A stretch of 64,000 bases of DNA from Candidatus Parcubacteria bacterium (GCA_018664825.1 JABJNO010000018.1:22722-86721); one strand, 5' to 3'. Counted from the stretch's first letter, positions 1 to 63,389 are shown. Made by a program: numbers and translations. Notes: a model not told the origin generated them from the sequence alone.

Positions 1-258
1 AATACCTCCACCCACCACCGCAACCAAAACAACTATCAGAAGAACCGAAATACCAACTACCTTTTGCTTTCCACCAACTGCTTTTTTGGGAGCGGCTGGC
101 AAAAATTTTTGCGGCATTATATGAACCTCTGAGTCATCAAGTTTGTTGGTGGCTGTAGCCACGCCTGCTTTGACACCCTTGCCATTTGCTTGGTCTTGAT
201 CAACAAATCCTTGCCCTACTTCTAAAATGTCTTTTTTCAATTCACTATTATCAAACAT
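1..258 (-). CDS. Partial (N-terminal) type-II membrane protein, paralog of the 262..1503 product; runs off the window edge
   Basis: The reverse-complement of 1..258 translates with no stops as MFDNSELKKDILEVGQGFVDQDQANGKGVKAGVATATNKLDDSEVHIMPQKFLPAAPKKAVGGKQKVVGISVLLIVVLVAVVGGGI. The ATG is at 256-258. The same MFD start and a following hydrophobic TM helix are seen in the upstream neighbor. This ORF is not in the supplied track. Confidence 0.45.
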   Translation of the reverse strand, partial: MFDNSELKKDILEVGQGFVDQDQANGKGVKAGVATATNKLDDSEVHIMPQKFLPAAPKKAVGGKQKVVGISVLLIVVLVAVVGGGI

Positions 259-261
259 ATA

Positions 262-1503: not shown

Positions 1504-1527
1504 AAATCTATTTATATAAATTATCTA

Positions 1528-7500: not shown

Positions 7501-10500
7501 TTGAGTCACATTTGTTCTCCACTCTGTTCCTCCGCTGTCCCTAATATGAAAATCAGGTTCATTGGTAGTAATGCTAGCAAGTGGTATTGGAGAATTAAAT
7601 TCTACTACAACCATTGGATTACTACAGGCCCCATTACAATTTGGATCATAATCTATTATTTCCAAATCTACCGCATTGATGATTGGATTTGTAGCCCCGG
7701 TGTATGTCACAGTATCTATCATGGTACTAGCCTCCAAAGTCACATGATTGGGAGTTTCATTTTCTGTAGCATTGAGACCAGTCAAACCCGTAAGGCCTCT
7801 ACTGGTCATCAAGTTTGTAGTCGGACTAATAGAAGCATAAGGAGGGGCTGTGGCTGGCTCTGCTGTAATAGCCCAATCCCAATTATAATTTTCTCCACAC
7901 ATATTACAATTATCAGCTTGTGGGGAAGCATAAAATGATCTAGTTTGACCTATGTTTGTATCACCAGAGGGTGATTGTGGTGATATGGTCACTCCGCTCA
8001 CTGGACACATATCTGCCGTTGGCCTTGTTTTGAAATGCCAATCAGGAGCAGGATTAGCAACAGTAGGCCAAGTATCTCCACCTACTTCCGTGTTGAATCC
8101 AGGACCAGCCCCCATAACTATCCTATACCATGTATCTGGATTTAAATTAGCAGCAGTTGGATCAAATACTATACCTTCTCTATTGCTACCACTATTTATA
8201 ATACTCGAGGCACCTGGCACAGCTGTAGTGCAGGTAGCTGCTGAAAAAGCCCCGCCCACATTACACTCTGTAACCATGAAATTGGCAGGAATCAACAAAT
8301 CCGCATCTACGACATCCCTAGTAAATAAGGCTACTATATTTGTGCTCAAATATGCGTCTTCAGAATCATATCCATCCATATCATCTGGCCATGGAGATGG
8401 AGATTGCAAATTGTTACTACAATCATGTGAATAGGCAAGCCCAAAAGGATCTGCCTCGGTATTTAGTGTCCAAGTATAAGTACAAGTATTTAGACTTGAA
8501 CAGCCTCCAGCGGGAGCGCAGGTATTATCAGAACAGCACTCATCACCAAGTCCGTAGGCCTGGCAGTATGCATTGCTACCACCACAACTACCTACATTGA
8601 ACATCATAGAGTTTGAAGGCGTAGGTGAGGAATCATTTACCACCATCACTGATCCTGACTCAGCAAGACCAGGTACCGCCACTCCTTCTATATCATTATT
8701 GGCCCAAGAGCTTCCTGTGCCCCATGAATTTAAATTGAAATCAAAAACATCACTTGCTGCACCCAGAGTTCCAAAATTGTCACCAGCCAAATCTACCACT
8801 ACTCCACCGGCCGGTCCGTTGTCTGGGTGAAGATAACAAAGTCCTGGACCTGGTAGCCCAGCTGTTATATCAATCAAATAATCATTACTATCAATACCAT
8901 CGCTGGTAGTCACCCTAGCCACACGATCAATGCCAATACTAACTCCAGTAGGCACCTTTACTATAATCTGTGTATCCTGCCAAAAAGAGCTACTACATAT
9001 AGGAGGGAAAGTAAAATCCCCATTTATACCATCAAGTAACAATTGTCCTTGGGTATTTCCAAAGTTGACTCCACGGACAGTGAGGTATTGCCCTTCTGGA
9101 CCACCATCGGGAGTGATCTCTGTGATCCTAGGCAAACCGCTATCCACTGGTAAAGCAGAAAATGGAAAAGCATTACTAATATCTGTACCATTTTGCATAA
9201 CTACTCCTACCTCACCAATTACATTTGGTACATCTGGATTAGCCGTTGAATCATTTACTACATTTGTATTAGGACTAGTAAAGCCTCCGAAAATAGCCTC
9301 GCTACCAAGAAAACGTATACCGCGAACATTTACAGAGTCTTCATAAGATCCGGTTGGCGGAGTCAGTTGACAGATACCCGGTCTATTAAGAGAGTTGTCT
9401 GAATTGAATAAAACTGAATTACTACTAGCCACTCCATCTGACCTCTCTAAAGTCAGTTGCCCCGTGCCCGCTCCTACGGGTACAACTACTATCACAGCTG
9501 TGTCAGTCCAAAGATTACTACACAAACCACCAGTAAGGACACTTGGCCATTCATTTGGCACTACACCACCTGAACCATCGTCAAAATATACCTGTCCCTG
9601 AGCACAGCCTGTGTCTTCACAAAAATTACTACCATAGACGGTAACAAAATTACCCTCTTCACTGGTATCTGGAGAAATAGAAGAAATAAATGGATCTCCA
9701 CTAGCACCAGAACTGCCAGAAGAACACTCGGAATAAGCTGAGCAAGAATTACTATCACAACAACCAGAAAGGCATTCACCGTTGCCGCCACAAGTGACAT
9801 TGAACCAGGCTGGATTTGATGTGTCTACTCCGACTTGGACAGTGACGTCACTAGATAGTGCATCTGTAGGCACCGTCAGGGTGATCAAGTCATTTGCCCA
9901 AGAATGAGCAATATCTGCATTGTTATAAATATTTCGAACAAGCTCTGTACCAGACACAGGAGAAGTATTTATCAAAACCTGATCATCCGGCGGACCAAAG
10001 TTGTCACCTTCTATATCAAAAGAAAATGTACCAGGATCAGAAGGCCCTTGGCTTGGGTTGAGGCAAAATATACTAGGCTGAGGCCCTGAAGAATTTATAT
10101 TGAAGAAACTGCCAAAAGTATGGAAATCACCTGTCTGACTCGTGACGGTAACTGGATAGTTTCCTGGAGTGACATTTGGAACTATCACTACTGTCTTCCA
10201 ATATCCACTACCAACGCTGAGCTCATCCCACACTGGAGCTCCTCCACAAGTTGCTAGATCAGCTACATTACCAGAACCAAATTCTACCTGACTAGTACCT
10301 GCTACATAATTGTCAAAATGCCAACCACGGATAGTAACCGCTGAACCAACACCGTTTGTAAGTGGTGTTATTTCACAGATACGGACTTCATTTGGATTGG
10401 TCGGTCTTGCACAGGTGCCTCCTGTGGGTGGTAAAGTAACACTATTAGTATTACCACTATTACCTGCGCCTGTTTCATCGTATAAAGATTGTAAAATAAA

Positions 10501-10848: not shown

Positions 10849-12471
10849 CTAATTACTTGTGCCGCAATTTGTACCAGAATTAGGCCAAGGACAGTCGGTA
10901 CCAACTGCTGCATTATTATTATCACAAAGACACGTGCCTGTAGGATCTGTACATTCACAGAAATACCAACAGTTTTGTCTCAAATCACTGATTCCAGAAG
11001 TAAGAGTCGGGGTATAGTCTGTAGATGGATCCAGTATATCGTGCCTTATCTCGACAATATGACTACTATTGAGTCCCAACCAAAAATTGACATCTCCAAG
11101 CGTGCTCTGATGAAATTGGATGTTTGTACTATTGATTGAGCTAGACAATAAATTTTCATCAAAAGTAACTCTGATTGGCTCAGATACAGAAGCATCGTCG
11201 TTGTCTTCCATATTGTTTATTTCTGGTGGATCAAGATCGATTGTATTATTGGTGCTAAATGTCCAGGTAAAATCTCCTCCTGCACCACCATCGCCATCAC
11301 CATCCAAAATATTTCCAGCCATGTCTGTAATCACATTTGGAAAAGCCCCGGTACCACTGACCGTGGATAGCATGGTAGCGCTAGCAGGCAAACAATATAC
11401 ATCTCCTCCACAAGAGTTTGAACCACACCAAACATCAGTAATAAATTCAACAGTTTGATATTGATTTGATATCCAATATTGTCCATCCAGAGTAACCCCA
11501 CCCTCGTCTACTGTAATATTTGTAAAAGGAGGATGTACACCAGCTGAAACTATAGGATTGACGGGTTCAGTAAAGTTTATTTGAACTACGCTATTTCGAG
11601 GATTATCAAGACCAACTGGCAAAACAGTATCTACTCTAGGTGGTGTGATATCTACTTCATTGTTTACTGTAAAGTCCCAGTCATAGTATCCGGTAAATGG
11701 GAAAGCAGTCGCCCCTGCTACAGTAGCCAGATCATCCAGGGTCATTTTGTAGGGAACGTCACCAACGTCATCACCCAAAAGAGGTGCTGGATCAAACTGG
11801 AAATTCAGCAACTCGGCTGTATCATAAGTGACTATCAGTTCTGAATTGATCAAACTAACACCGTCGTGAGGAGCCAAAATAATATGGCTTGTATCAGCCT
11901 GACACTCTACCAATGTACCAACTATAGTAGTACAGGTAGTCCCAACCACTATATCCGTAGCATCAATTGGTTCTTTGAAAGTTACAAAAATATTGGTATT
12001 TCTAGGAATCTCACGTGCATTACGAGAAGGATAATGACTTTCTATAACTCCACCTCCCAAACCAAGTCCTCCGGTATATCCGCCACCAGATCCACCACTA
12101 CCCCCTACCGTTCCGTCGTATCCTTCTTGAAGTAAGAAGCGGGCAATAGCATAAGAAGATAATATTATAGCTAGTCCAATAACACCGTTGATAATAATCT
12201 TTTTAGCACGATCAATTTTATCTGCATTGCCACCGGAAGTCATCCAAATATAACCACCATACAAAATAATAACGGTGGCTAAAATACCTAGGAAACCTAG
12301 GAATATATTAATAATACCAGCAACCATATCTCTAAGGTCTCTAGTACCCAAATTTGTATTGGACAAATCATTTACTCCATATACATCTTGAGCGCTGGCT
12401 ACTTCTGGCAACAAAAAAATAACTGCAAAAAAGAGAAATAATAATACAGTTATTTTTTTATTAGTTAGCAT
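10849..12471 (-). CDS. 540-aa secreted/anchored protein that shares the N-terminal signal plus double-helix module with the giant protein; its passenger region is different, Gly-rich and Cys-rich
   Basis: Its N-terminus reads AQDVYGVNDLSNTNLGTRDLRDMVAGIINIFLGFLGILATVIILYGGYIWMTSGGNADKIDRAKKII. The corresponding region of the 3098-aa protein reads AQDVFGVNDLTDVNLGTRSLQDTIAGIINIFLGFLGILAVVLILYGGFIWMTSAGNTDKIQRAKMII. Only 24 nt separate the two genes. Confidence 0.7.
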   Translation of the reverse strand: MLTNKKITVLLFLFFAVIFLLPEVASAQDVYGVNDLSNTNLGTRDLRDMVAGIINIFLGFLGILATVIILYGGYIWMTSGGNADKIDRAKKIIINGVIGLAIILSSYAIARFLLQEGYDGTVGGSGGSGGGYTGGLGLGGGVIESHYPSRNAREIPRNTNIFVTFKEPIDATDIVVGTTCTTIVGTLVECQADTSHIILAPHDGVSLINSELIVTYDTAELLNFQFDPAPLLGDDVGDVPYKMTLDDLATVAGATAFPFTGYYDWDFTVNNEVDITPPRVDTVLPVGLDNPRNSVVQINFTEPVNPIVSAGVHPPFTNITVDEGGVTLDGQYWISNQYQTVEFITDVWCGSNSCGGDVYCLPASATMLSTVSGTGAFPNVITDMAGNILDGDGDGGAGGDFTWTFSTNNTIDLDPPEINNMEDNDDASVSEPIRVTFDENLLSSSINSTNIQFHQSTLGDVNFWLGLNSSHIVEIRHDILDPSTDYTPTLTSGISDLRQNCWYFCECTDPTGTCLCDNNNAAVGTDCPWPNSGTNCGTSN

Positions 12472-44188: not shown

Positions 44189-44848
44189 TTAAGAAGACGT
44201 ATTTGTAAACTCTACCTTTCCCCAAATTTGGTGTTTTTTGGCTAATTTTTTAGCTTTTTTTAATAAATGTTTATTTTTTACTATAGTCAAATTTCCTTCT
44301 ATTTGTATATCATCTGGAAGATCTTCTATCTCGGTCATGGACAATTTTAAGTCACCGACTATTCTCAACCTTTTTGGCAATTTTTTCATTTCAGTAAAAT
44401 GTATATAAGCATCTCCCAATATAGTCATATTGTCTGGTAAATCAAAATCCTCAAAACCCTCTATTTCAAAATGTTCATTTTTGTATATTACCTCTCTGGT
44501 TTCTGGTTTAAGAATAATATTCTCCTCAAACCACTCATCTGCATCTGACTGGGGAATTCCAGCGTCTTTATTTTTTGTTTCTCTACTGAGAAAAACCGCC
44601 CGTATAAGCTGGTCTTTTATTTTTTCTGGATCAAAAAAGAATTTTTTAATTCCATCCATAATAGCTATAAAAGAACTCCGTAATTCCTTTAAACGACGAG
44701 TGTCTTTGTTGGTAATACTGGAATAAAAAATTTCTCCACATTCTTCCATGAGTTTTTTTAAAAACTCCAGATCCCCTCTTAAATCTTTACAATTTTCTAT
44801 TGGCATAATATTTATTCTACTATAATTTTGCAATTTTAAAAACAGCAA
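44189..44848 (-). CDS. Long member (A) of the window-expanded Cys-motif family, with C-terminal LRR-like LPxxLxIxGxL repeats and a basic KKAKKLAKK tail
   Basis: The N-terminal motif is IENCKDLRGDLEFL. The FYV-equivalent is KKFFFDPEKI. The repeats are LPDNMTILGDAY, LPKRLRIVGDLKL and LPDDIQIEGNLTI. Confidence 0.5.
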   Translation of the reverse strand: MLFLKLQNYSRINIMPIENCKDLRGDLEFLKKLMEECGEIFYSSITNKDTRRLKELRSSFIAIMDGIKKFFFDPEKIKDQLIRAVFLSRETKNKDAGIPQSDADEWFEENIILKPETREVIYKNEHFEIEGFEDFDLPDNMTILGDAYIHFTEMKKLPKRLRIVGDLKLSMTEIEDLPDDIQIEGNLTIVKNKHLLKKAKKLAKKHQIWGKVEFTNTSS

Positions 44849-44876
44849 ACTAAATTGCTGTTTTTAAGTATAAGTT

Positions 44877-45089
44877 TTATTTCTTATCATCACCTTGAGC
44901 TTCTTCTTCGGCGCAAAATTCTTCGATTTGCGCTTCTAGCTCAGCGATGTCTTTTTCGGCTTGTTCTTTGAACTCTGTTAGTTCTTGGACCTCTTTGTCA
45001 AATTCCATTTTATCTAGTGTCTCTACAGTGTCTTTGGCCTCTTCTCCCATTTCTTGCCGAAAGCCTTGTCCCATTTTTTGTTCTGGCAT
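44877..45089 (-). CDS. Small acidic coiled-coil protein (70 aa) between family member A and the AAA+ gene
   Basis: It is an ORF with E/K-rich heptads. Confidence 0.35.
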   Translation of the reverse strand: MPEQKMGQGFRQEMGEEAKDTVETLDKMEFDKEVQELTEFKEQAEKDIAELEAQIEEFCAEEEAQGDDKK

Positions 45090-45134
45090 ATTTTTTCAAT
45101 TAAATTAATATTCTTATTAAATTACCTAATTTTA

Positions 45135-48032
45135 TTACGTTTTACCCTTAAGTGCACTTTTGATAAGCTCTCCTTTTGCATCCAAGTCCATACCATCAGC
45201 AGCACTCCTTGTCTCTTCATTTATTATACCTTTTTTCTGAAGTAAATCAAGTAGCATGTCATAAAAATCAGAACTTTCCTGAACAAACTCTTCGTCTGAT
45301 GTATTGTCTCTAAAGTCTTCATTAACGACTATCTCGCCATCTTTTCTCTCTACTAGCTTGGTTTTTTCTATATGTTCTCTATATTCTCTAATTTCAGATG
45401 CATTGTCAAATAAATCAGCCTGCAAAACCGCTACTTTGATTTCTCTAACATCTGTAATTAATCTTTGTACTTTTTCAGCCATTTCATCAATTCCAGCCAT
45501 TTCTTTGTAGACTCCTTGCATTTTTTCATACTCAGCTTTCTTTCTTGGTGGTAGATAACCAAATAACAATTGTAAAGTCTCCAGTGAGGAGAAATATTGT
45601 ATATTGTATTTACCATCGGTATTGAGTAATCCAGCTGCATCACCATTTTGATTGATTGATTTGTATTTGTCTATAGATTTATGAGGATTAAATGAAGTTA
45701 GAGTCTTTTGCCAATTTTTTAAATTTTCCTCCTGATCTCCTCCGGTTGTTGTGGTATAATCTGGCCATTTTTCACTACTCTGAAAAAAGCCTGCTTTTTC
45801 TAAAATAGAATAAATAATTACTTGCTCTTCTGGAAATTGATCATACTTTCTAATATACTTATATAGATAATATTCAATATCCATATTGGTACCTTCATCC
45901 ATGTATCCGCCAATTACATTATCAATCAACTCACGCATAGTAAGATTTGATTTTTTTAATTTATCACTATAATTGGTGGTAGTACCAGCCCCAATGAGTT
46001 GATCAAGATTTCTAAACTCAGGCAAATTTTCCGCACTACCTTCAAACATATCCATAATAATGCGAGCACCCATACTCAAGCGATATATATCCTTGAATAC
46101 AGAAAACCTATCTTCCTGCTTGACCAAAAGCTCTGCACCCATCCTGTCATTAAGAAGTTTGACCAACAACACTTGGAAAATTTGATCGTGCTTGGCTCTT
46201 TCTTTTGATTTTTTAACAACTTCCATAGCTTCTGGAAAATCCGCAAAAGCAGTATCGGCTAATTTTTCTAAATCAAGCCTACCCAAAAGTTCATCAATAT
46301 TTGACACCTCTCTTGATTGAGGAAGGTATCCCATCTTGATTGGGTGGATTCTACTATATGAAGCTGGATCCATATCGTTGTATCTAGCCTGCTTGTATCT
46401 TTCACCGGTATTACCAGTCCAGATCACACAATAACCATCTTTGACTTGAATATCTCCGGAGTCAGTCCTAGTCTGGATGATGTCACCGGGTTTTTTGGTA
46501 AGTAGATCATTGAAGGCAATCAATACCTCTGGAGTAATAGCATTGGCCTCATCAATAATCAAGGGTTTACCTTCGGTCATGGCTTTGTACATAGCACCTA
46601 GAACATAACGCCCCTGTACCTGATTGCCAAATAAACCTTCTAATTGCTGTTCTATGTCTGCAGAAAATTCTTCTGGTAATTTTTCTTTATTATCTTCTAC
46701 ATATTGATCAAATTTTTCTTTATCAAAATCTTCACCAGGATTGGCGTGATCAAAATCTTCTTTCAATCTATTCAAGACAATTGTATCTCTAAAATCACCT
46801 TTACGCTTTGCAAGCTCTGCCATTAATACATCGTCTGGAACACTATCGTCAAAAATCTCACCAGTACCTGAGTCTTTGTTTAAAATATTTAAAACTTCAG
46901 AAAGTGATAATTTTTGAATTTTAAATTCTTCGGTAAATCTATCAGGATCCAAAAATTTACTACCCGAAACTATGATAGGCTCATTCTTGAATCTAGTACG
47001 AGATAGATGCACAGCTAAAGCGGTTTTCCCGGTACCAAAGTCTCCATGAAGATACACGATGGTCGGGGGTCTTTTTGTCAAAGAAGGCATAGCCTCTTCT
47101 ATAATCTTTTTTACATAGTCTGTTTCTACTATTTTACCTGTATTTAATAATTCATGTAGATATTTCATTTCCTTGCTATAATTTACATAAGCAGGAATAA
47201 AATCTTTTTCTACTATATTGCCCTGTTCATCATATGTTGCCTCTGTGCCCAGTTTGTATTCAGTATTATATTTTTTGGCAGCCAACCTCTCTACTCTACT
47301 CGTAGACTTCTGCATCTTTTCTTCATCTACTCCGTGAATCCTAGCTTTTTCACCCTGAGTACGCAAAGAATCTTCATTACGACTAACATTGGCCATATGG
47401 ATTCCCCTTTTGACAGTTTCAATCTGACGTAAAGAGTCCCTCACTTCTGGCAATGAACTTCTAGAATATGCTTTTATTTTTTGAATATCTTCTTCTTCAT
47501 AAGCATCCATCTCTTCACTCAAGGTACTATAATGTGCCTCCATTAAGACATCAAATCTAGCCAGTTTACCCAAAGTACGGACTTCTACCTCTGCTTCCAT
47601 CTCTCTTTCTTTTTTGGCGTCTCTTGCATGAACCCCGTTGACGTCCAAAATCTTTTTTCTTTCTGTCTTATCTATAGAGTCCATGAGCATTTCCATAAAA
47701 ACATCCCTATCAACTCCCCACACAGCATCAAAATCAGCGAGTCTTATAGGATGAGCAAATTTATTTTTTGGATCAGCTTCTTGAGCATTTTTCAAATGCT
47801 CTTGAACAACAGCCTTTAAATCATCTGGCAAAGTATCAAATACCTCTGAGGTCACCAAATTTTCATAAGTCATGTACTTTTTGATCTCATCAAAAATAGA
47901 CAACATCTGCTCTCGCTTGATTTTGTACTCATAAGCCAATCTCTCTGCCTCCAAAGCCTCTGCTACTTCCGCTCTCTGCTCTTCATCATTTAGCTCTGGT
48001 GAAGGTATGGTTGGCATTCTTGATTCTTTCAT
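45135..48032 (-). CDS. Very large (965 aa) AAA+ ATPase of the MoxR/AAA_5-like type, with about 320-aa N-terminal and about 350-aa C-terminal extensions
   Basis: Walker A reads VYLHGDFGTGKTALAV. Walker B reads KPLIIDEANAI. Sensor-1 is WTGNTGERY. An insertion sits between Walker A and B. Confidence 0.7.
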   Translation of the reverse strand: MKESRMPTIPSPELNDEEQRAEVAEALEAERLAYEYKIKREQMLSIFDEIKKYMTYENLVTSEVFDTLPDDLKAVVQEHLKNAQEADPKNKFAHPIRLADFDAVWGVDRDVFMEMLMDSIDKTERKKILDVNGVHARDAKKEREMEAEVEVRTLGKLARFDVLMEAHYSTLSEEMDAYEEEDIQKIKAYSRSSLPEVRDSLRQIETVKRGIHMANVSRNEDSLRTQGEKARIHGVDEEKMQKSTSRVERLAAKKYNTEYKLGTEATYDEQGNIVEKDFIPAYVNYSKEMKYLHELLNTGKIVETDYVKKIIEEAMPSLTKRPPTIVYLHGDFGTGKTALAVHLSRTRFKNEPIIVSGSKFLDPDRFTEEFKIQKLSLSEVLNILNKDSGTGEIFDDSVPDDVLMAELAKRKGDFRDTIVLNRLKEDFDHANPGEDFDKEKFDQYVEDNKEKLPEEFSADIEQQLEGLFGNQVQGRYVLGAMYKAMTEGKPLIIDEANAITPEVLIAFNDLLTKKPGDIIQTRTDSGDIQVKDGYCVIWTGNTGERYKQARYNDMDPASYSRIHPIKMGYLPQSREVSNIDELLGRLDLEKLADTAFADFPEAMEVVKKSKERAKHDQIFQVLLVKLLNDRMGAELLVKQEDRFSVFKDIYRLSMGARIIMDMFEGSAENLPEFRNLDQLIGAGTTTNYSDKLKKSNLTMRELIDNVIGGYMDEGTNMDIEYYLYKYIRKYDQFPEEQVIIYSILEKAGFFQSSEKWPDYTTTTGGDQEENLKNWQKTLTSFNPHKSIDKYKSINQNGDAAGLLNTDGKYNIQYFSSLETLQLLFGYLPPRKKAEYEKMQGVYKEMAGIDEMAEKVQRLITDVREIKVAVLQADLFDNASEIREYREHIEKTKLVERKDGEIVVNEDFRDNTSDEEFVQESSDFYDMLLDLLQKKGIINEETRSAADGMDLDAKGELIKSALKGKT

Positions 48033-48065
48033 ATTTTTTTGAAAAATAATCTTTATCTCTTATAT

Positions 48066-48094
48066 ATAATAAAATTTATATCACTTTAAGTCAA
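48066..48094 (-). promoter_or_regulatory. Putative promoter (TTGACT-17-TATTAT) upstream of the AAA+ gene
   Basis: The minus strand reads ttgact-17-tattat, about 30 nt upstream of the ATG. Confidence 0.3.
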
Positions 48095-48095
48095 T

Positions 48096-51000
48096 CTATT
48101 TTTCTATTCCATCTAGAATTTCATTCATACTTTTCTCAACTTTTTCGGCAATAATTTTTTTGAGCAGCCTGCTAAAAGATTCAACAATTTGCTCGGGAGT
48201 ATTGGCGCGGATTACATTTTCCTTGCCATGTCTTTCGCTAAGACCCTCAAGGGCTGCCTCATCTCCTTCGTGATCACCAATTGCAAACCCACCAACTCCA
48301 ATACCCGTCTCTCCTTTGAAAGCAGCTAAATTTTCATTGGCTTCTTCATTTTTGCCCAAAAATCCACCGTCACAAATTTGGATTACTACTTCAGTCAATT
48401 TGTTATCAGCAATCATTTGTTTGAGCTCTGGATCATTACGATCTCTGAGCATCTTGATCCATAGATCTGCATCAAAGGTGACTTCGCTAGCATTTATTTT
48501 TTTAAATGCCCTCAGGGTACTGATAGTCTCTGCGTCAATGTCTATTTGTGGTTTTTCAGATTCTTCGTCATCCAAAAATGATAGATCCTGCACATCAAAT
48601 TCTTTTATTTTTCTGGCCTCACCATCGTTTCCAAAAAGCCATAATTGAGTGTCACAAATTATATCCAAATTTTCTGGAGCACTATCACCCAAAATCTCTC
48701 TCATTTTGTCTCTAAACAATATCCTAAAAGATCTTAAAGAAGAGTTGAGTAACATTATAGACATGCGCATTTGATCAATCTTACCGCTCATACTACCAGA
48801 ATTATCAATTGCCAAAGTCATGCGCAACATTTTTGGTCTGAGTTCTGAAATAACTCTTTCTACAAGTTGTTCGTAAATAAGTCTATCATCAACCTCAATT
48901 CCCATTTCTATTTCTGGAAAATGTTTTTGCAATCTTTTGACGTCCAATTTTCCACTACGATAATATTTGTCTTTAAAGACTTCGATACGACTAGCAATAT
49001 TGTTTACTACCTCTAGCCAATTTTTGGCCATCTTGTCAGCATAGGGCCTTATCTTTTTTTCTAGTTCTATAAAATCTTTGACAACCCCCTCATTGCTAAG
49101 GTCTTTTCCAGACCAACCACTGTCCGCATCATCGCCCGCTTCAGCCTCTGCTTTGTCCAGGGCTTCCAATAATTTTTTTATCCTAGCTTTGTCGTATTTA
49201 GCTTCTTTATACTCTTCTGATTTTTTGGCTTCTTCTAATTCTCTTAGATTGGCCTCCCTTTGATCTTGCTCTATCATTTGTTCTAGAGCTTCTTTGAGAG
49301 GATTTACAATATCTTTTAGGTCAGTATCATCACCATCTTGATCTTCGGGATTTGTCTCTTGTGGATCACCTTCTCCATCTTCATTATCGTCATCGTCGTC
49401 TCCATCTTCATTGTCGTCGTCTTTATCATCAAAATAATTTTTACGTTTATCAGGTGAAGATTTTGAAGATTTTCCCTTTTGTTTTTTTTGATCTTTATTA
49501 TATAAATTTAAATTAACATACGGATCAAACACTTCTTGTATATCATAAGTGTAATCTGTACTACCTGCCATAGCCTGTACTTCTCTCTCTTCAGAATATT
49601 CTACGGTTACAGAAATTACCTCTCCATCTTTTCCTTCTGTCACTTGGGTAATTATACCTATCTTTCCTCTGTTTGGATCATTTTTATCCACATTGATAAT
49701 TTTGTCACCCTGAGACCAAACTTTCTCTTCCATGTCTGGATCACCACCATCACCGCCATCACCACCTTCTCCTTCGCCTTTTTCTTCTGGCATTGTGACA
49801 TCAAAGCTATCATCCAAAATACAAAGCATAGTAAATATCGGCTCCAAAGTAGTCCTCATTATTTTACTTCTTTCGCTTTGATTATGTTTTAGGGGAAATG
49901 TCCAAGAATATTTTTTTGATTTTGTTTTAGTCTTAAATTCTTCAAAAATATCCAAAAAACTCACGTCTTTTTTTCTCTCTATACCTAATTGAGCTATTAC
50001 TTTTCTCAACCCTGCCTTGTACTGCATCTTGGCTCTTTTGGTATTTACTTGATCAGTAGTCAGGTTGTCAAAAAAATCATTCATCCTGCGGATAAACTCT
50101 GGTTGATTGTTTTTATGTTTTTTATATATTGTATGTAATCCTGGGACAGCAGATAGATTCATAACATTTGACTGAAAATCTGGGTCAACTTCTTCGACCT
50201 TGCCATTTCTTTCTTCAAAATTGGCTACCTTGACAGTAGTAGTCATAAATTCAATATATCTTTTGAGTTGAGCTGGGTCGTCTTTGTATTTTTCCAAAAC
50301 CTTGTTGAGTAATTCTTCATACACTTCGTCTATTGGGCCATTGAGAGCCCTTTCCACATCTTCGTGTACCACAAATTTTCCATTTGGATTTTCTGGACTC
50401 TGGATATCATCTTCATCAAGATCCAACATTTGATTTTTTATAAAAAAAGTCATAAATTGACCAGATCTCATCATGTCTGGTTTTACTTTGGTAAAATCAA
50501 TACCTTGTTCATGGTCTTCGGCTGTAAGTTTGACCAAATTTCCTTTGCCTTTACCAACTTTTTTTATTTCTTTCTTGTCTGGGTTTTTAGGATCTTCTAC
50601 TTCTGCGTATTCCCCGTTACCCTCTCCTACTTCGTTGTACATTACAAAAAGAAGATCGGTATAAGCATCTTTTATTTCTTGGGCTCTTTTTGGAGATACA
50701 TTTTCTCCAAAGTGAGCTGTTTGTTTGACCAGATGATTGACAATCCCATCTTCTAAAACATTATAAAAATGTCTATAAGTATTAAAAAGAGAAAGTGTTT
50801 TTTGTGAATTATCCTTATCACGCATTCTTTTTCTTTCTTCGTATTTGAATTGAGCTATCTGACCATGTTTACCAGCTGGATCAAGCTCTTCCATGGTTTT
50901 ACGATGAGCAAACTCATGAAGCATACCAAACATAATTTGTTCTATATTCATGCCTGTGCCTTCTTTTGAGTTTTTGAATTCTGGCACACTCAAACAAATA

Positions 51001-51257
51001 GTATCAATGCTAGCTGCATAAGAAAAACCCATTCCAAAAACCATGTTGAAACGGGCATTTTTACCTTCCAAAAATGTTCCTATTGTGTCGAGATGTTGCT
51101 GGGCCCACTCACTCATTTCGTCCCTATATGGCCACAGCTCTTTGGGTACACCATTTTGATCCTTGTTTGGATCTTGTTCTGGCTCTTTCTTACCCTTTTT
51201 ATCACCTCCGTCAGCTTGTACTGACATTTCAATTTTAGATCTTCCTTCAAATGACAT
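48096..51257 (-). CDS. 1053-aa protein with an N-terminal HExxH metallopeptidase-like domain (DUF2201_N-like), a poly-acidic linker and a C-terminal von Willebrand A domain with a MIDAS motif
   Basis: It carries MFGMLHEFAHRK (HExxH), DDKDDDNEDGDDDDDNEDGEGD and TLAIDNSGSMSG (DxSxS MIDAS). It lies immediately upstream of the AAA+ gene. Confidence 0.7.
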   Translation of the reverse strand: MSFEGRSKIEMSVQADGGDKKGKKEPEQDPNKDQNGVPKELWPYRDEMSEWAQQHLDTIGTFLEGKNARFNMVFGMGFSYAASIDTICLSVPEFKNSKEGTGMNIEQIMFGMLHEFAHRKTMEELDPAGKHGQIAQFKYEERKRMRDKDNSQKTLSLFNTYRHFYNVLEDGIVNHLVKQTAHFGENVSPKRAQEIKDAYTDLLFVMYNEVGEGNGEYAEVEDPKNPDKKEIKKVGKGKGNLVKLTAEDHEQGIDFTKVKPDMMRSGQFMTFFIKNQMLDLDEDDIQSPENPNGKFVVHEDVERALNGPIDEVYEELLNKVLEKYKDDPAQLKRYIEFMTTTVKVANFEERNGKVEEVDPDFQSNVMNLSAVPGLHTIYKKHKNNQPEFIRRMNDFFDNLTTDQVNTKRAKMQYKAGLRKVIAQLGIERKKDVSFLDIFEEFKTKTKSKKYSWTFPLKHNQSERSKIMRTTLEPIFTMLCILDDSFDVTMPEEKGEGEGGDGGDGGDPDMEEKVWSQGDKIINVDKNDPNRGKIGIITQVTEGKDGEVISVTVEYSEEREVQAMAGSTDYTYDIQEVFDPYVNLNLYNKDQKKQKGKSSKSSPDKRKNYFDDKDDDNEDGDDDDDNEDGEGDPQETNPEDQDGDDTDLKDIVNPLKEALEQMIEQDQREANLRELEEAKKSEEYKEAKYDKARIKKLLEALDKAEAEAGDDADSGWSGKDLSNEGVVKDFIELEKKIRPYADKMAKNWLEVVNNIASRIEVFKDKYYRSGKLDVKRLQKHFPEIEMGIEVDDRLIYEQLVERVISELRPKMLRMTLAIDNSGSMSGKIDQMRMSIMLLNSSLRSFRILFRDKMREILGDSAPENLDIICDTQLWLFGNDGEARKIKEFDVQDLSFLDDEESEKPQIDIDAETISTLRAFKKINASEVTFDADLWIKMLRDRNDPELKQMIADNKLTEVVIQICDGGFLGKNEEANENLAAFKGETGIGVGGFAIGDHEGDEAALEGLSERHGKENVIRANTPEQIVESFSRLLKKIIAEKVEKSMNEILDGIEK

Positions 51258-51266
51258 AGGCTAAAA

Positions 51267-51295
51267 TTACATACTTTATTATAATACATTTTTAC
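51267..51295 (-). promoter_or_regulatory. Consensus sigma70-type promoter TTGACA-17-TATAAT driving the vWA/AAA+ pair
   Basis: The minus strand reads ttgaca (51290-51295 RC), a 17-nt spacer, then tataat (51267-51272 RC), about 20 nt upstream of the ATG at 51257. Confidence 0.45.
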
Positions 51296-51335
51296 TAAAA
51301 TGTCAAAAAATACCCCGTTTCTACCCCTTTTTTAC

Positions 51336-51962
51336 TTAATTAATGACTGTTATTTGTCCTTTTTCCTTTAATTCTTTGGCTCTATCCAGTAAATCAGCAT
51401 CAACATGTATAATAACCGCCCTCAAATCATCTGGTAAATCAGTCAGCCCAGTACGCCTTATAAACAATTCGTTGACTGTCATCCCCGATGGTAACTCATC
51501 TAGCTTGGTACCAGTCAAACGTAAATCTTCTTTGATCTGTAAATTTTTTGGCAATCTGACAACATCACAATTTTTTAGCTGCAAATTTCCTCCGATTATC
51601 AAATTGTCCGGTAAGGTAGTAAATTTTTTATCATTAAAATGCCTAGGAGCATGAAGCTGTGTTTCCATCTCATCTCTATAGATCATAACTCTAGAACCAA
51701 TCAGCTCTCTTGCCTCTACCTCGTCTTGTGCTTCACCTACTTCTACAAAAAACTGTGCCCAAGAATTTTCTGTTTTGATAACAAAAATATCTTTTTTTAT
51801 TTCTCCTATCTCTACCAATATTGCGTCTTTTAATTTAAACAAACCATCCCTATCTTCTCTTTTGGCAGAAGCTAGGGCAGTCTCCAATTTTTTTATTGTA
51901 ACTCTGGCAATAACAACCCTATCAAATAGTTGCTGACAATTTTTAGGTTTTGTATCTGGCAT
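51336..51962 (-). CDS. Long member (B) of the Cys-motif family with four LRR-like LP repeats and a basic tail; directly abuts the rmuC stop
   Basis: It carries KPKNCQQLFDRVVIARV...AQFFVEVGEA. The repeats are LPDNLIIGGNLQL, LPKNLQIKEDLRL, LPSGMTVNELFI and LPDDLRAVIIHV, ending KELKEKGQITVIN. Confidence 0.5.
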   Translation of the reverse strand: MPDTKPKNCQQLFDRVVIARVTIKKLETALASAKREDRDGLFKLKDAILVEIGEIKKDIFVIKTENSWAQFFVEVGEAQDEVEARELIGSRVMIYRDEMETQLHAPRHFNDKKFTTLPDNLIIGGNLQLKNCDVVRLPKNLQIKEDLRLTGTKLDELPSGMTVNELFIRRTGLTDLPDDLRAVIIHVDADLLDRAKELKEKGQITVIN

Positions 51963-53009
51963 TTATTCTAATCTTGGTTTTTCAACATCCTCCAATTCTA
52001 ACTCTCCGCCCTTGCCACTAATCTTTAAGATATCTTTATCTATTTTCTTAAACTCCTTACTAGAAAAATTATAGGCATTGGCAACTGTACCTAGGTGAGT
52101 ACCTAGTTTTTTATGATACTCAGCATAGGCTAACATGTGTTTTTGTAATTTCTCTACATTTTTACGTATTTCTTTGGCGGATTCTTCTATCTGCAAAGCC
52201 TTGAGCCCTTGTAAGACAGTCTGCAGGTAGGCCGCAAAAGTAGTCGGTGATACAATGATTACTTTTTTCTCATTGAAAGCATAGTCAATCAAAGATCTTG
52301 TGTTTACCTTGACTGCTCCTACTTCGTTTATAAGTAAATCATAATATATCCCCTCAGCCGGAATAAACATAAAAGCAAAATCCAAGGTACCTTCATTTGG
52401 TCTGATATATTTTGCAGTTTCGTCAATACGTTTCTTCAAATCATTTTTAAATTCTTTTTCCAAAACCATTTTTTTGGCTTTATCTTTTTCATCTATAATA
52501 CGACGATAATTTTCTAAAGAAAATTTGGCATCAACTGGTAAAATCTTATCTTTTATTTTAACAATAGCATCAACAGCTTCACCATTTTTGAAATGGTACT
52601 GCATTTCATAATTTTGCGGTGGCAAAATATTTGATAAAATCATTTCTAAGCCTGCCTCACCAAGGTTGCCCCTAGTCTTGGCGTTGGTGAGTACTTTTTC
52701 TAAATTTTGTAGTTGATCTGTAAATCCTACTACCTGCTTGTTTGTTTCCTCCAATTTCAAAAGCTTCTCGGTCATTTCTTTGGAAATACGAGAAGTCTCC
52801 ATAAATTGATCTTGTAGCATCTTGGAAGAGTGTTGGTTGGTTTTGTCTATCTTTTCACCTAGTTGTTGAGTAAGATTATTTATCTGTTGTTGCAACATCA
52901 ACATTGCCTTGTCATCTTTTTTTTCTTCGACAGGAGCCCGTTTTTTCATCAAAAACCAGATTATCGCCCCGACGCCGACTACTATTAAGATTGTATTTAG
53001 ATATTCCAT
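51963..53009 (-). CDS. rmuC: DNA recombination protein RmuC
   Basis: It has an N-terminal TM, a coiled coil, and a C-terminal RmuC nuclease-like domain (FMFIP...VIIVSPTT). Confidence 0.8.
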   Translation of the reverse strand: MEYLNTILIVVGVGAIIWFLMKKRAPVEEKKDDKAMLMLQQQINNLTQQLGEKIDKTNQHSSKMLQDQFMETSRISKEMTEKLLKLEETNKQVVGFTDQLQNLEKVLTNAKTRGNLGEAGLEMILSNILPPQNYEMQYHFKNGEAVDAIVKIKDKILPVDAKFSLENYRRIIDEKDKAKKMVLEKEFKNDLKKRIDETAKYIRPNEGTLDFAFMFIPAEGIYYDLLINEVGAVKVNTRSLIDYAFNEKKVIIVSPTTFAAYLQTVLQGLKALQIEESAKEIRKNVEKLQKHMLAYAEYHKKLGTHLGTVANAYNFSSKEFKKIDKDILKISGKGGELELEDVEKPRLE

Positions 53010-55226: not shown

Positions 55227-55484
55227 TTATTTAATATTATCTTCCCTGAAGGATATTCGAGAACCATCTCCTATCGTATCCTTAACATGTGCAAATTCAT
55301 CCTTCAATATTTTGAATCTTCTACTAAACTCATCTCTTGCCGCAACAATCAAGTGTAAGTCTCTTGACTCCCCCAGCACGTCAATTTGTTTTGAAATATC
55401 CTCACTTAATCCTCTTGAAATTTCAATATCTATTCTAAGGGTTTTACATATATTCGATTTATAAACTCTCAATTTCATAAGCAA
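55227..55484 (-). CDS. Cys-motif family member (85 aa)
   Basis: It carries SNICKTLRIDIEISRG and IVAARDEF. Confidence 0.45.
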   Translation of the reverse strand: MLMKLRVYKSNICKTLRIDIEISRGLSEDISKQIDVLGESRDLHLIVAARDEFSRRFKILKDEFAHVKDTIGDGSRISFREDNIK

Positions 55485-55513: not shown

Positions 55514-55729
55514 TTATTCAAATAAATTATTCGCTTCCATTTCTATAGACTGTGGCAAAATCCCCCTTAGGGTTCTATACTTTATAATCAACTTATCTCT
55601 AGCATCAATAGCCGGTTCAATGTTTCCTGTTTTTTTTGTTTTTTCAACCTCTATTAAAACATCTTCATTCCATTCGCGCAATTTTTCAATCCCCCCTCTC
55701 ATTTCTTTACATATGTGTGATTTAGTCAT
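55514..55729 (-). CDS. Cys-motif family member (71 aa), ATGA-coupled to the metG stop
   Basis: It reads MTKSHICKEMRGGIEKLREW. Its start overlaps the metG stop. Confidence 0.45.
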   Translation of the reverse strand: MTKSHICKEMRGGIEKLREWNEDVLIEVEKTKKTGNIEPAIDARDKLIIKYRTLRGILPQSIEMEANNLFE

Positions 55730-61204: not shown

Positions 61205-61549
61205 TTAAATTCTTTTAAAATAATATTCTTTTTGTTCTATTTGTTTTTTTATTTCGTTGTTATCAAGCTGAGCCATGGCGGCCATATCTTTGGAGGCGAT
61301 AACATTTTGAGTTTTATTTAATTCAATAATTCTCTCTGAGTACATTTCTCTTAATTTCAATAATTCTCTATCCACATAAAAATTATCCAAAACATACCTC
61401 AGGTCTGTAGCGGCCCGTTGGATGGCAAATTTGATATGCCCCTTTCCCCGATCAATAATCCCTTGGAAAATTTCATCATGCTCTGCCTTGAATTCCTCGA
61501 CTTGCTTGAATTCGTTTTTTAATTGTTCACAAACTTCTGTTTTAATCAT
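61205..61549 (-). CDS. Tandem-array Cys-motif family member 5 of 5 (114 aa)
   Basis: It carries MIKTEVCEQLK...DNFYVDRELL...VIASKD. Confidence 0.5.
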   Translation of the reverse strand: MIKTEVCEQLKNEFKQVEEFKAEHDEIFQGIIDRGKGHIKFAIQRAATDLRYVLDNFYVDRELLKLREMYSERIIELNKTQNVIASKDMAAMAQLDNNEIKKQIEQKEYYFKRI

Positions 61550-61833
61550 CTAAAAAATTTATCCTTTAAAAAATAAGGTACCCTGTCTTTTATCAATTTA
61601 TCTTTCATTGATTCTAATTCTGTAGGAGTCCAGAACCCTGTATAATTATCATCATTTTTATAACTACCTATACTACGTAAAATATGAGGATCAACATAAA
61701 AGGCATTTATAGCATCCCTAATGCTAGTAAGTTTGACTCCAAAATCTTTATCACCCGCAGCAATGCTCGTCAACTGAAGTCCCGTGATAGTAATTTCGTT
61801 TCTTAACTCTTCACAAAGCTCTACTTTATTCAT
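61546..61833 (-). CDS. Tandem-array Cys-motif family member 4 of 5 (95 aa)
   Basis: It carries MNKVELCEELR...NAFYVDPHIL...VPYFL, with ATGA overlaps on both sides. Confidence 0.5.
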   Translation of the reverse strand: MNKVELCEELRNEITITGLQLTSIAAGDKDFGVKLTSIRDAINAFYVDPHILRSIGSYKNDDNYTGFWTPTELESMKDKLIKDRVPYFLKDKFFR

Positions 61834-62164
61834 AAGGCTCTTGTAAAAAATAAGGTATACCCTTGGCTCTTTCTTCTTTTATCTGCTTCTTCATGCTTGT
61901 TTTAATTTTTTCTAACTTTTCAGCTTTTTCTGCACCAACAAATTTTAGGTATATCAAATCTATCCCTTGCCGATAAATATCTAGAGCTGTTTGATTCATA
62001 TAAAACTCATCAATTTTGTCTTGAATAAATTCACTCTGCTCTATTGTGGCCTTTCTTACTTCTTCCAAGCCTAAATTTTTTATATCAAAATCAAACTTAT
62101 CCAAATATCCTCTGACAGTTATTATATCGGCTCTAAGTTTTTCACAGACTTCTGTTTTAGTCAT
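61826..62164 (-). CDS. Tandem-array Cys-motif family member 3 of 5 (112 aa)
   Basis: It carries MTKTEVCEKLRADI...DEFYMNQTAL...IPYFL. Confidence 0.5.
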   Translation of the reverse strand: MTKTEVCEKLRADIITVRGYLDKFDFDIKNLGLEEVRKATIEQSEFIQDKIDEFYMNQTALDIYRQGIDLIYLKFVGAEKAEKLEKIKTSMKKQIKEERAKGIPYFLQEPYE

Positions 62165-62507
62165 CTAGTTTCATCGTCTTAAAATATGGAATTTTTCTTA
62201 TCTTTTGCTCGAACACCATGTCTTCAAATTTTCTAACATCACTTGAAAGAATTTTGAATAATACATGGAACTCTTCTTGATTGGTTTTAAGGTTTGAAAG
62301 TTTCTTCTCTGCTTTTTCTAATAAACTTAATGTAGCAGGGCGTACATAAAAATTGTCTATGTTGTTCCTAGCCTGCTTTAAAGCTTCTACTAGGTCATCC
62401 AGAATAGCCATATCCCGACTAGCTATCATATTATGAATAGCCTGCATTTCATCTTTCAGTACACCAAAATCTATTCTTATTTTTTCGCAAACTTCTACTT
62501 TAGTCAT
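62157..62507 (-). CDS. Tandem-array Cys-motif family member 2 of 5 (116 aa)
   Basis: It carries MTKVEVCEKIR...MIASRD...DNFYVRPATL...IPYF. Confidence 0.5.
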   Translation of the reverse strand: MTKVEVCEKIRIDFGVLKDEMQAIHNMIASRDMAILDDLVEALKQARNNIDNFYVRPATLSLLEKAEKKLSNLKTNQEEFHVLFKILSSDVRKFEDMVFEQKIRKIPYFKTMKLDD

Positions 62508-62841
62508 TTATCTTTTCTCTTAAAAAATATGGAATTTTTTCTTTTCTCATCCTCTCTACTTTGGGTGCCAAGTGTTTGTATAGTCTAATATCAAAATTAG
62601 GACTTCCTTGAGGCATTTTCTCAAAATGTAAATAATGCTTTAAAATTCTTGACTCTACATAAAATTCATCCATCCTATCCTTGATAAAATCAATCATCTC
62701 ATCAATAACCAAATCTTCTTCAAGTTGTTTCAATAATTTTAAATCACGGCTAGCTATAACTTTATTGATTCCACCTTGCAGTGATCCTTTTAATATAGCA
62801 ATGTCTGCCTTGAGTTTTTTACATTCTTGTAGTTTAGTCAT
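62500..62841 (-). CDS. Tandem-array Cys-motif family member 1 of 5 (113 aa)
   Basis: It carries MTKLQECKKLKADI...VIASRD...DEFYVESRIL...IPYFL. Confidence 0.5.
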   Translation of the reverse strand: MTKLQECKKLKADIAILKGSLQGGINKVIASRDLKLLKQLEEDLVIDEMIDFIKDRMDEFYVESRILKHYLHFEKMPQGSPNFDIRLYKHLAPKVERMRKEKIPYFLREKIND

Positions 62842-63389
62842 TATCTTATTTCAAATTTTTCTATCTTTCCCTCTTTTTTCAATCTCTCGGCATCTTTTTT
62901 GTGCTTTTTGTTTATAATCAGTTTACCCGTGACATAAAGATTGAGTGGTAGCTCAAAAAGATTTGTCCAATCTGAGACATCTAGATCTCCTTCAAATTCC
63001 AAATCTTCTGCCAAAACTGATAATTTAGCATTTTTTAAAACAAAGGAACGCGGAATAACAACTTTTTTTCTATCATGATCAATATGCACATATTTTTTTA
63101 TAAAAGAATAAATCCTATGACGATCCTCTCCCATGCCCTTGGTTGCTTTTATATAATGTACAAGTGCGTTTCTTATAAACTCCTCCAAATCCGCCCCCTC
63201 AGGCCTGTCACGAAGTACGGGATAATTTCTTTTATTCCCATATTTATAAATCCTTCTCTTCAAAAATTTTAATTCTTCAAGCCCACCCTTATCTTCTAGC
63301 ATACTTAGATTAATAGAAAAATCTCTTAGCCTTTCTTTGGCTATAGCAATAGAATCTCTAAAATGCTGACAATCTGGAAATAAAATCAT
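62841..63389 (-). CDS. Long member (C) of the Cys-motif family with an LRR-like C-terminal part and a basic tail; TAATG-coupled to glyS
   Basis: It carries FPDCQHFRDSIAIAKERLRDF, then LEFEGDLDV and LPLNLYVTGKLII, ending KKDAERLKKEGKIEKFEIR. Confidence 0.5.
   Translation of the reverse strand: MILFPDCQHFRDSIAIAKERLRDFSINLSMLEDKGGLEELKFLKRRIYKYGNKRNYPVLRDRPEGADLEEFIRNALVHYIKATKGMGEDRHRIYSFIKKYVHIDHDRKKVVIPRSFVLKNAKLSVLAEDLEFEGDLDVSDWTNLFELPLNLYVTGKLIINKKHKKDAERLKKEGKIEKFEIR

Follow-up and report, generated by a model that had tools for sequence, protein, structure and literature searches.

Among the systems closest to the one described here, DUF2201_N/DUF2201 proteins carry an HExxH domain N-terminal to a von Willebrand factor A (vWA)-like domain and are encoded beside a MoxR-class ATPase. 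In the NorQ/NorD system, the vWA partner docks on the ATPase hexamer and has its linker twisted or stretched by the ATPase (PMC13036017). In midasin (Rea1/MDN1), the metal ion-dependent adhesion site (MIDAS) captures an acidic residue on the N-terminal ubiquitin-like (UBL) domain of propeller proteins (PMC8837202). Kaur et al. (2020; PMC7159879) give a general peptide-capture model for MoxR-vWA systems and describe ternary systems in which VMAP, iSTAND, FtsH or a beta-propeller joined to the vWA protein serves as the third component, with effectors placed C-terminal to the vWA domain. Here we analyze a pair of this broad kind in a 64,000-nucleotide stretch of DNA (the window) from a metagenome-assembled genome of Candidatus Parcubacteria bacterium (GCA_018664825.1, JABJNO010000018.1:22722-86721), a member of the candidate phyla radiation (CPR, or Patescibacteria). 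Two minus-strand genes encode a 965-aa AAA+ ATPase (45135-48032) and a 1053-aa zincin-like/vWA partner (48096-51257). These two large proteins (MBT4850040.1 and MBT4850041.1) are both listed as "hypothetical protein" at NCBI, and JGI labels MBT4850040.1 as "MoxR-like ATPase".

We found that the ATPase, its zincin-like/vWA partner and a small Cys protein form a conserved, CPR-specific trio, whose neighbors in most lineages are arrays of rapidly diverging paralogs that nearly all share a short N-terminal tag. By analogy with described systems, we consider it moderately probable that the trio works as an ATP-driven machine which uses its MIDAS to handle or process the tagged repeat proteins, its probable clients. 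The classification of the pair is solid, and the model of its clients and mechanism is plausible.

The ATPase matches Pfam AAA_5 (PF07728) with 33.0 bits against a cut-off of 22 (E = 6.9e-8). This profile match, above the gathering score, bears out the MoxR-like AAA+ class proposed in a first-pass annotation of the window. MoxR proper (AAA_3, PF07726) gave no match at E up to 1, and searches of solved structures in the PDB found no significant sequence or profile match to the ATPase, so it is MoxR-class only in the broad AAA_5 sense and strongly divergent. We identified 53 homologs, all with PF07728 and all from CPR or unnamed metagenomic bacteria. In an alignment of 41 sequences, the nucleotide-binding motifs noticed earlier proved invariant at their key positions: G330, G333, G335, K336 and T337 in Walker A (GDFGTGKT, residues 330-337, 47022-47045; this and all domain positions below are on the minus strand), D494 and E495 in Walker B (LIIDEANA, residues 491-497, 46542-46562), and sensor-1 N541. 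The same is true of R657 and of R561, the arginine finger in DPAxYSR. Because Walker A, Walker B, sensor-1 and the arginine finger are all invariant, the ATPase should be active.

An AlphaFold 2 (AF2) model of the ATPase (predicted local distance difference test score, pLDDT, of 84) shows a single AAA+ module at residues ~305-626, between an all-helical N-terminal extension (residues 1-300) and a mixed C-terminal extension (residues 627-965). The model places a pre-sensor-1 beta-hairpin at 518-529 (strands 518-520 and 527-529). A variable, mostly helical insertion of ~110 aa (residues 375-487, 46572-46910) separates strand beta2 from Walker B; in the AF2 model, on which this placement is based, it occupies the helix-2-insert position of MoxR-clade ATPases with helices in place of the hairpin, and its helices (377-487) have lower pLDDT. 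In fold comparisons the module is closest to the dynein/midasin, CbbQ, NorQ and McrB class, with dynein and midasin the best matches. The ATPase also matches the CobS-like family phrog_249 in PHROGs (8.5e-11), and scans of the five proteins of the locus with Pfam, NCBIfam, PADLOC and PHROGs gave a weak GvpN match for it and no significant match for the partner or the flanking proteins. Both it and its partner are far larger than typical members of their classes and carry long extensions that match no family, as had been noted at the outset.

The partner consists, in order, of a zincin-like N-terminal domain, a small beta-barrel, an Asp/Glu-rich linker, a helical stalk and a C-terminal vWA domain with a MIDAS (AF2 model, pLDDT 75). 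We assessed its conservation in an alignment with 19 homologs from a word-index search. The N-terminal alpha/beta domain (residues ~30-490, 49788-51170) carries HEFAH at residues 114-118 (50904-50918), with H114, E115 and H118 near-invariant in the 19 relatives. About 50 residues past this motif, the helix YNVLEDGIVN contributes the conserved residues N166, E169, D170, V173 and N174. When we compared 28 diverse N-terminal domains from the full-length family (family 1) and a sister family of shorter vWA proteins (family 2), H114, E115, H118, N166 and D170 were the only invariant residues; E169 is conserved in family 1 only. The predicted topology is of three strands (71-90), the HExxH helix (105-123) and then a helix (158-178) bearing D170. 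D170 is the best candidate for the third zinc ligand.

No Pfam family matches the partner, and sequence and profile searches of the PDB returned nothing significant for it. A profile of the N-terminal domain by itself gave 13 sub-threshold PDB matches (E 0.18-2.2), 12 of which are zinc peptidases of the zincin type, among them myroilysin, proabylysin, ADAMTS and IrrE, whose HExxH motif falls on that of the partner. Peptidase_M78 and Aminopep matched weakly in three of 48 sister-family relatives. The lists of structural matches for the partner were saturated by its vWA domain, and a BFVD structure search gave only vWA- and CobT-like matches, headed by phage CobT. Membership in DUF2201_N/DUF2201, which the first-pass annotation had put forward, did not hold up: neither PF13203 nor PF09967 was found in four Pfam scans, at E up to 1 for this protein and up to 0.1, 0.01 and 10 for the 19 and 48 relatives. 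The partner should therefore not be filed under DUF2201.

The small five-stranded beta domain (residues ~515-590, 49488-49715; strands within 519-587 in the AF2 model) is SH3/KOW-like in appearance, with a weak KOW match (E = 0.14) and conserved W514, G517, G534 and Y554. Next come a disordered linker rich in Asp and Glu (residues ~596-650, 49308-49472; pLDDT <50 for 589-651), whose length varies among relatives, and long helices at 653-805 that form the stalk in the model. The vWA domain (residues ~808-1020, 48198-48836) has the motif DNSGSM at 818-823, giving D818-x-S820-x-S822 at 48789-48806. D818, S820, S822 and D963 are invariant and T927 is conserved in at least 90% of the 19 relatives, making a complete MIDAS. 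The HExxH domain, acidic linker and C-terminal vWA domain that had been read from the sequence are present, the two domains with conserved motifs. Pfam VWA-family profiles did not match the window's partner; in relatives they scored below or near threshold (four of 19, best 3e-4; 15 of 48 in the sister family, best 1.3e-6). In the AF2 model the region has the Rossmann-like alpha/beta/alpha fold of a vWA domain, and its best structural matches are the MIDAS domains of MDN1 and Rea1.

The third member of the trio is a 70-aa acidic protein (44877-45089, minus strand) whose C-terminal Cys motif, …IEEFCAEEE, is conserved. In all 16 family-1 loci that cover this position, an acidic ORF of 58-144 aa lies directly 3' of the ATPase gene, and a Cys followed by acidic residues near the C-terminus aligns in 15 of the 16 proteins; the small ORF, first noticed as an acidic coiled-coil neighbor of the pair, is part of the module. 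In every family-1 locus with enough sequence, the vWA and ATPase genes are adjacent or in the same operon, so that the pair occurs together in all loci examined; the refuting condition set at the outset, that related genomes never carry the two genes together, clearly does not hold. The usual gene order is vWA, AAA, small ORF, with AAA, small ORF, vWA in three loci (L007, L012 and L019). The trio is syntenic across Parcubacteria, Saccharibacteria, Gracilibacteria, Peribacteria, Berkelbacteria and Buchananbacteria, in contexts that vary with lineage: rmuC in the window, ClpB or transketolase in Peribacteria, and tRNA synthetases elsewhere. In two Gracilibacteria loci (L017 and L019), the trio and tagged genes are intact only in genetic code 25 (UGA = Gly), and are fragmented with table 11.

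An exhaustive profile search of 1.8 billion representatives identified 231 partner-like proteins (E up to 1e-3), divided between family 1 and the larger sister family. Scanning one genome per species for the pattern, we obtained 13 loci, from Saccharibacteria, Buchananbacteria, Peribacteria, Gracilibacteria, Berkelbacteria and unnamed Patescibacteria; one record is labelled Gammaproteobacteria. This record (L018, CAZYUN010000001.1, "uncultured Gammaproteobacteria") has a family-1 trio of the usual kind together with three tagged genes (M[SP]LNC[SP][KQ]AVS…), and its label is probably a binning or taxonomy error. Sister-family proteins, also from CPR bacteria (Falkowbacteria), are 660-940 aa long and share the layout (HExxH, NxxxDxxVN, DxSGSM, T, TDG), with the MIDAS motif likewise intact. 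Of the four sister-family loci that we read, three have a long AAA_5 gene after the vWA gene; in the fourth (L026), no AAA_5 gene was seen beside the vWA gene. The proteins in two of these loci are a 770-aa vWA protein and an 861-aa AAA_5 protein (L023, 15084-22313), and a 938-aa vWA protein and a 732-aa AAA_5 protein (L025, 15167-22014). Sister-family loci do not encode the small Cys protein.

Among viral contigs in IMG/VR, we detected no match to the partner and a single match to the ATPase, identical to a contig of a metagenome-assembled genome with a neighboring prophage-like region. At this locus (L015, equal to L027, IMGVR_UViG_3300021600_000632; 126-6121), the trio and ~10 tagged genes lie ~6 kb downstream of phage-family ORFs, one of which encodes an endolysin-type amidase (phrog_822, 5e-15). 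These phage genes probably represent a neighboring prophage rather than a phage-borne system.

We surveyed tagged genes in 17 family-1 lineages, using sequence within 10 kb on either side of each locus. The tag consists of Met, zero to nine residues, [N/D]-C-x-[E/Q/D]-hydrophobic, and then an amphipathic helix, and is found in nearly all array paralogs. Examples from other loci are MDCGEITTKI, MNCKELTTFL, MPQLCPELTTKL, M..NCPQLKKQL, MNENCQKWHEQ and MPLNCPQAVSQL; the window has MPIENCKDLRGDL and MPDTKPKNCQQLF, and MPDTKPKNCQQLFDRVVIARV is a further tag peptide. The pattern [N/D]-x-x-E is a helix-capping box, which places the tag Cys at the first turn of the helix. Tagged paralogous neighbors are present in 14 of the 17 lineages, in differing genomic contexts. 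A hidden Markov model (HMM) of the tag matched 54 ORFs at E<0.01, in every case at the N-terminus, and none in reversed sequences. Among 217 genes within 8 kb of a trio, 70 have a Cys within residues 2-11, compared with ~10% for each later 10-residue window (p = 2e-18). The tagged genes can lie within the operon itself: three stand between the vWA and ATPase genes in L004, and one between the small ORF and the vWA gene in L015. Their C-terminal domains include WG_beta_rep (up to 103 bits), WD40 propellers and GXGXG beta-helices, with LRR-like (leucine-rich repeat-like) repeats in the window.

The sister family has comparable arrays with Cys-free tags (M.NPEQQL.E.SL..NF.E.Q…FDKLMSELE in L023 and M[TP]TPFN[RN][YR] in L025). 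Cys-type tags and the small Cys subunit therefore co-vary, both being absent from a family that keeps tagged arrays. In L023 and L025, six to seven paralogs lie 3' of the vWA/AAA_5 genes, one with a WD40 propeller and one with LPxx..G.L.L repeats. Repeats in the family-2 loci L025 and L026 (LPxx…GxLxL) resemble the LRR-like repeats of the window in appearance but differ from them in spacing.

In the window, two tagged client candidates flank the trio. One, of 208 aa (51336-51962, minus strand), combines an N-terminal helix beginning MPDTKPKNCQQLF… with C-terminal LRR-like repeats (LPDNLIIGGNLQL); the tag HMM matches it at E = 3e-3, and its ortholog in the nearest relative of the window locus (L006) is 53% identical. 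The other (44189-44806, minus strand; 205 aa) has MPIENCKDLRGDL… and LRR-like repeats, with a tag HMM match at E = 2e-4. Its ORF extends to a TTG at 44848 (44189-44848, 219 aa), but the ATG at 44806, the more likely start, gives a protein beginning MPIENC that matches the tag pattern of its paralogs. A palindrome with a 14-bp stem (44835-44868) overlaps the TTG-extended start. The 208- and 219-aa ORFs are paralogous (3e-9), and their repeats, LPxxLxIxGxLxL, were confirmed with a repeat regular expression. A third LRR-like paralog of 182 aa (62841-63389, minus strand) has a MILFPDCQHFRDSI… tag and a C-terminal LPLNLYVTGKLII repeat; as it lies 11 kb from the trio, the LRR-like family does not merely bracket the pair.

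Besides these three LRR-like genes, the window has seven tagged genes. Two small ORFs, both on the minus strand and both with counterparts in L006, lie at 55227-55478 (…NICKTLRIDI…) and 55514-55729 (MTKSHICKEMRGGI…). The other five are paralogs of 114, 95, 112, 116 and 113 aa whose genes overlap or abut at 61205-62841 on the minus strand. They start with M[TNI]K[TVL][EQ][VLE]C[EK].L[KR], and four of the five end in a [KRG][IV]PYF[LK] motif, the exception being the 114-aa ORF at 61205-61549. These five look like stand-alone versions of the client tag domain. We also considered the LRR-like family as a general neighbor of the trio and rejected this, as BLAST and a strict repeat regular expression find the family only in the window (three copies) and in L006. 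Of the earlier suggestion that the pair is bracketed by LRR-like family members, the paralogy and the linkage to the pair stand; the flanking genes are a local form of a wider pattern of tagged repeat proteins.

How might a trio of this kind act on tagged proteins? On the model of NorQ/NorD, CbbQ/CbbO, CobS/CobT and midasin, the ATPase would assemble as a hexamer, and the vWA subunit would dock on it and be pulled or twisted via its stalk and acidic linker. The N-terminal tag of the repeat proteins would be captured, by its conserved acidic residue, its Cys, or both, at the MIDAS metal and possibly also at the zincin zinc. ATP hydrolysis would then remodel or release the client, or present it for cleavage by the HExxH domain, with the small Cys protein in the part of a regulator or of a pseudo-substrate. 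Since the tags and the small subunit co-vary in having Cys, one may speculate that they share a binding site, perhaps on zinc, in the manner of a cysteine switch. As to biological role, we favor recognition, in conflict or host interaction, over cofactor insertion, because the candidate clients are hypervariable, multi-copy and built of binding modules; the fact that none of the ~20 loci encodes a target enzyme near the trio also makes cofactor insertion unlikely. Tentatively, and with more doubt than belief, we can sketch a fuller version: a tag-directed machine unique to CPR bacteria, in which the tag would be a dedicated handle on a diversifying repertoire of repeat-domain receptors and would bind by its thiolate to the zincin zinc and by its acidic residue to the MIDAS metal, the C-terminal Cys motif of the small subunit would gate the site as a pseudo-substrate, and the ATPase would load, extract or proteolytically activate the receptors for an immune-like or host-recognition function, a mechanism parallel to that of midasin on its UBL-propeller substrates.

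Several observations weigh against tagged proteins as clients of the trio. In a leave-one-locus-out test, the tag HMM found only 12 matches (11 N-terminal, none in reversed sequences), indicating weak similarity across lineages. Tagged genes are not limited to the vicinity of the trio, with the array of the window lying 10-12 kb away, and the enrichment of N-terminal Cys in near over far genes is not significant (p = 0.16, with a small far set). Two Peribacteria loci have a trio and no tagged neighbor within 10 kb. The tagged and LRR-like genes could be unrelated neighbors, members of an expanded CPR family that happens to cluster in variable regions, with the trio acting on something else; the tagged genes 4-12 kb from the trio in the window, the non-significant enrichment and the Peribacteria loci fit such a picture. 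We judge it unlikely, given that adjacency recurs in 14 of 17 lineages in differing contexts, that in L004 and L015 the operon itself includes tagged genes, that the sister family repeats the arrangement with other tags, and that Cys tags co-vary with the Cys subunit. A real possibility, if not a probable one, is that the trio serves in conflict or against phages, as the MoxR-vWA ternary systems do, which partly overlaps the machine that we favor: the tagged proteins would be diversifying intracellular sensors of invader proteins, the AAA+/vWA pair would set the activation threshold, and the HExxH peptidase would be the effector. Arrays of this kind, whose rapidly diverging paralogs carry propeller, LRR-like or WG domains, are characteristic of conflict systems, the short shared N-termini recall the effector-associated domains of Kaur et al. 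(PMC7159879), and one locus (L015) is listed in IMG/VR and lies ~6 kb from prophage-like genes. Kaur et al. left CPR bacteria out of their multicellularity statistics, and we found no description of the family in the passages of that study consulted or in literature searches. Yet PADLOC gave no match: in PADLOC-DB 2.0 we saw only sub-threshold similarity of TRIP13 to the P-loop (E = 0.002, ATPase residues 313-344) and of PDC-S20, a candidate defense family, to the 70-aa ORF (E = 0.013, 12.9 bits); the vWA protein and the two flanking ORFs matched no profile. Moreover, the loci encode no VMAP, iSTAND, FtsH or propeller-fused vWA component and no nuclease, TIR, pore or other toxic domain; the vWA domain is C-terminal with no effector domain after it; and the trio sits amid housekeeping genes in a context kept in its nearest relative.

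The same ATPase class and the same layout of acidic linker and C-terminal vWA domain would be found in a maturation chaperone for a metalloenzyme or cofactor, as CobS/CobT is for CobN, and as in NorQ/NorD, CbbQ/CbbO and CoxD/CoxE. The match to CobS-like phrog_249, phage CobT as the top BFVD structural match, and weak CobT_C matches in three of 48 sister-family members point the same way. We nonetheless consider such a role very unlikely: none of the ~20 loci encodes CobN, NOR, Rubisco, CO dehydrogenase or another target enzyme, CPR genomes are metabolically minimal, and the chaperones named here lack an HExxH domain, a small Cys subunit and tagged paralog arrays. The neighborhood tables and ORF maps of the fetched loci, which carry partial Pfam annotation and were made without a CobN-specific search, list no CobN or corrin genes. 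We give equally little credence to a split, hexameric prokaryotic counterpart of midasin/Rea1 that extracts propeller-type assembly factors, for example from the ribosome, by a MIDAS-bound N-terminal handle. The MDN1 and Rea1 MIDAS domains are the best structural matches, with a D/E-rich region preceding the MIDAS; the ATPase matches dynein and midasin best; and the candidate clients join an N-terminal handle to a beta-propeller, as do Rsa4 and Ytm1. But generic vWA domains match almost as well, a short helix takes the place of a UBL domain as the handle, and there is one AAA module against six. Whereas assembly factors are conserved, the candidate clients are hypervariable and present in multiple copies, and the distribution in CPR bacteria is patchy (13 species representatives by the pattern scan). 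An ATP-driven machine with tagged clients remains the reading that we prefer.

The five minus-strand ORFs of the locus, from the LRR-like flank ORF at 44189-44848 to the one at 51336-51962, are real and lie where they were first placed. A sigma-70-type promoter, TTGACA-17-TATAAT (51278-51306, minus strand), precedes the vWA gene; it matches the consensus at 12 of 12 positions and is the best site in the region, in agreement with the claim that the pair has a promoter of its own. RmuC is encoded at 51963-53009 (Pfam 7.7e-54), and an ATP-synthase operon lies below 44.1 kb. The further proposal of a self-contained five-gene cassette inserted next to rmuC did not survive comparison: the GC content of the five-ORF block (0.32-0.375) is unremarkable and inside the range of the window, other lineages carry the trio in other housekeeping contexts, and more tagged genes lie 4-12 kb off. 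The nearest relative (L006, 71% identity) keeps the context of the window, so we regard the trio as a resident module and not a freshly inserted cassette. We likewise rejected a recent insertion or mobile cassette, given the lack of a GC anomaly, the absence of tRNA and Rfam features across the 64-kb window, the context kept in L006, and the lack of a viral-contig match to the partner.

The rest of the window is an ordinary CPR chromosome, with gyrB, pheT, metG, a UvrD/PD-(D/E)XK helicase, TatD and giant surface proteins whose N-terminus is of the T4SS-pilin (type IV secretion system pilin) type. A 3098-aa protein (1528-10824) and a 540-aa protein (10849-12471), both on the minus strand, have an N-terminal T4SS_pilin/TrbC-like segment and Big_5 Ig-like domains; beside them, a 413-aa protein (262-1503, minus strand) has bacterial TSP3 repeats. 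All three are probably surface or pilus-associated proteins of an epibiont. Nearly all genes of the window (1-64000) are on the minus strand, and its GC skew is negative in every 2-kb bin. AT skew is lowest (-0.19 to -0.21) over 44-54 kb, which probably reflects Lys/Glu/Asp-rich coding.

CPR bacteria have tiny genomes in which most lineage-specific genes are uncharacterized. That such genomes keep ~6.3 kb for the trio, and kilobases more for tagged paralogs, implies that its function is important. Should the tagged repeat proteins prove to be clients, the trio would form a bacterial MoxR-vWA system with substrates that can be read from the genome, at a time when most MoxR substrates are still unknown, and a tractable model for client selection by MIDAS domains and AAA_5 motors. 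If true, our reading would also add a candidate recognition or conflict system to CPR bacteria, in which, to our knowledge, few defense systems have been found. The likeness to the MIDAS and D/E-rich region of midasin bears on the prokaryotic origin of midasin.

We found no description of the trio family in the literature, including the passages of PMC7159879 consulted; it belongs to the broad kind of MoxR-class ATPase/vWA pairs. NorQ/NorD, CbbQ/CbbO and CobS/CobT share its ATPase class by Pfam and fold, and the expected mechanism, an ATP-driven pull or twist on the vWA linker, would be the same; the nearest viral relatives are phage CobS and CobT. Compared with these systems, the ATPase here is about three times larger, with a ~300-aa N-terminal extension, a 340-aa C-terminal extension and a helical insertion in its core. 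The partner has an HExxH domain and a beta-barrel, a small Cys subunit is conserved, and arrays of tagged repeat proteins take the place of a target enzyme gene. The DUF2201 proteins, as described, follow the same concept, but the window's protein has no profile match to them, is ~2.5 times longer and has extra domains. Midasin has in common a D/E-rich segment upstream of the MIDAS, an AAA_5-type motor and an N-terminal handle on beta-propeller substrates, at a sequence identity of only 11-13%; here the trio's ATPase and vWA parts are split in two proteins, with one AAA module where midasin has six in tandem, an HExxH domain, and candidate clients without a UBL domain. With the MoxR-vWA ternary systems (PMC7159879), the locus shares a MoxR-vWA core plus a third component, variable repeat or propeller proteins and short adaptor-like modules; it differs in that the third component is a 58-144-aa acidic Cys protein, no effectors follow the vWA domain, and propellers are encoded in separate tagged genes. 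In its size, HExxH N-terminal domain, beta-barrel, helical insertion, Cys subunit and tagged arrays, the system is distinct from NorQD, CbbQO, CobST, RavA-ViaA, DUF2201, the ternary systems and midasin.

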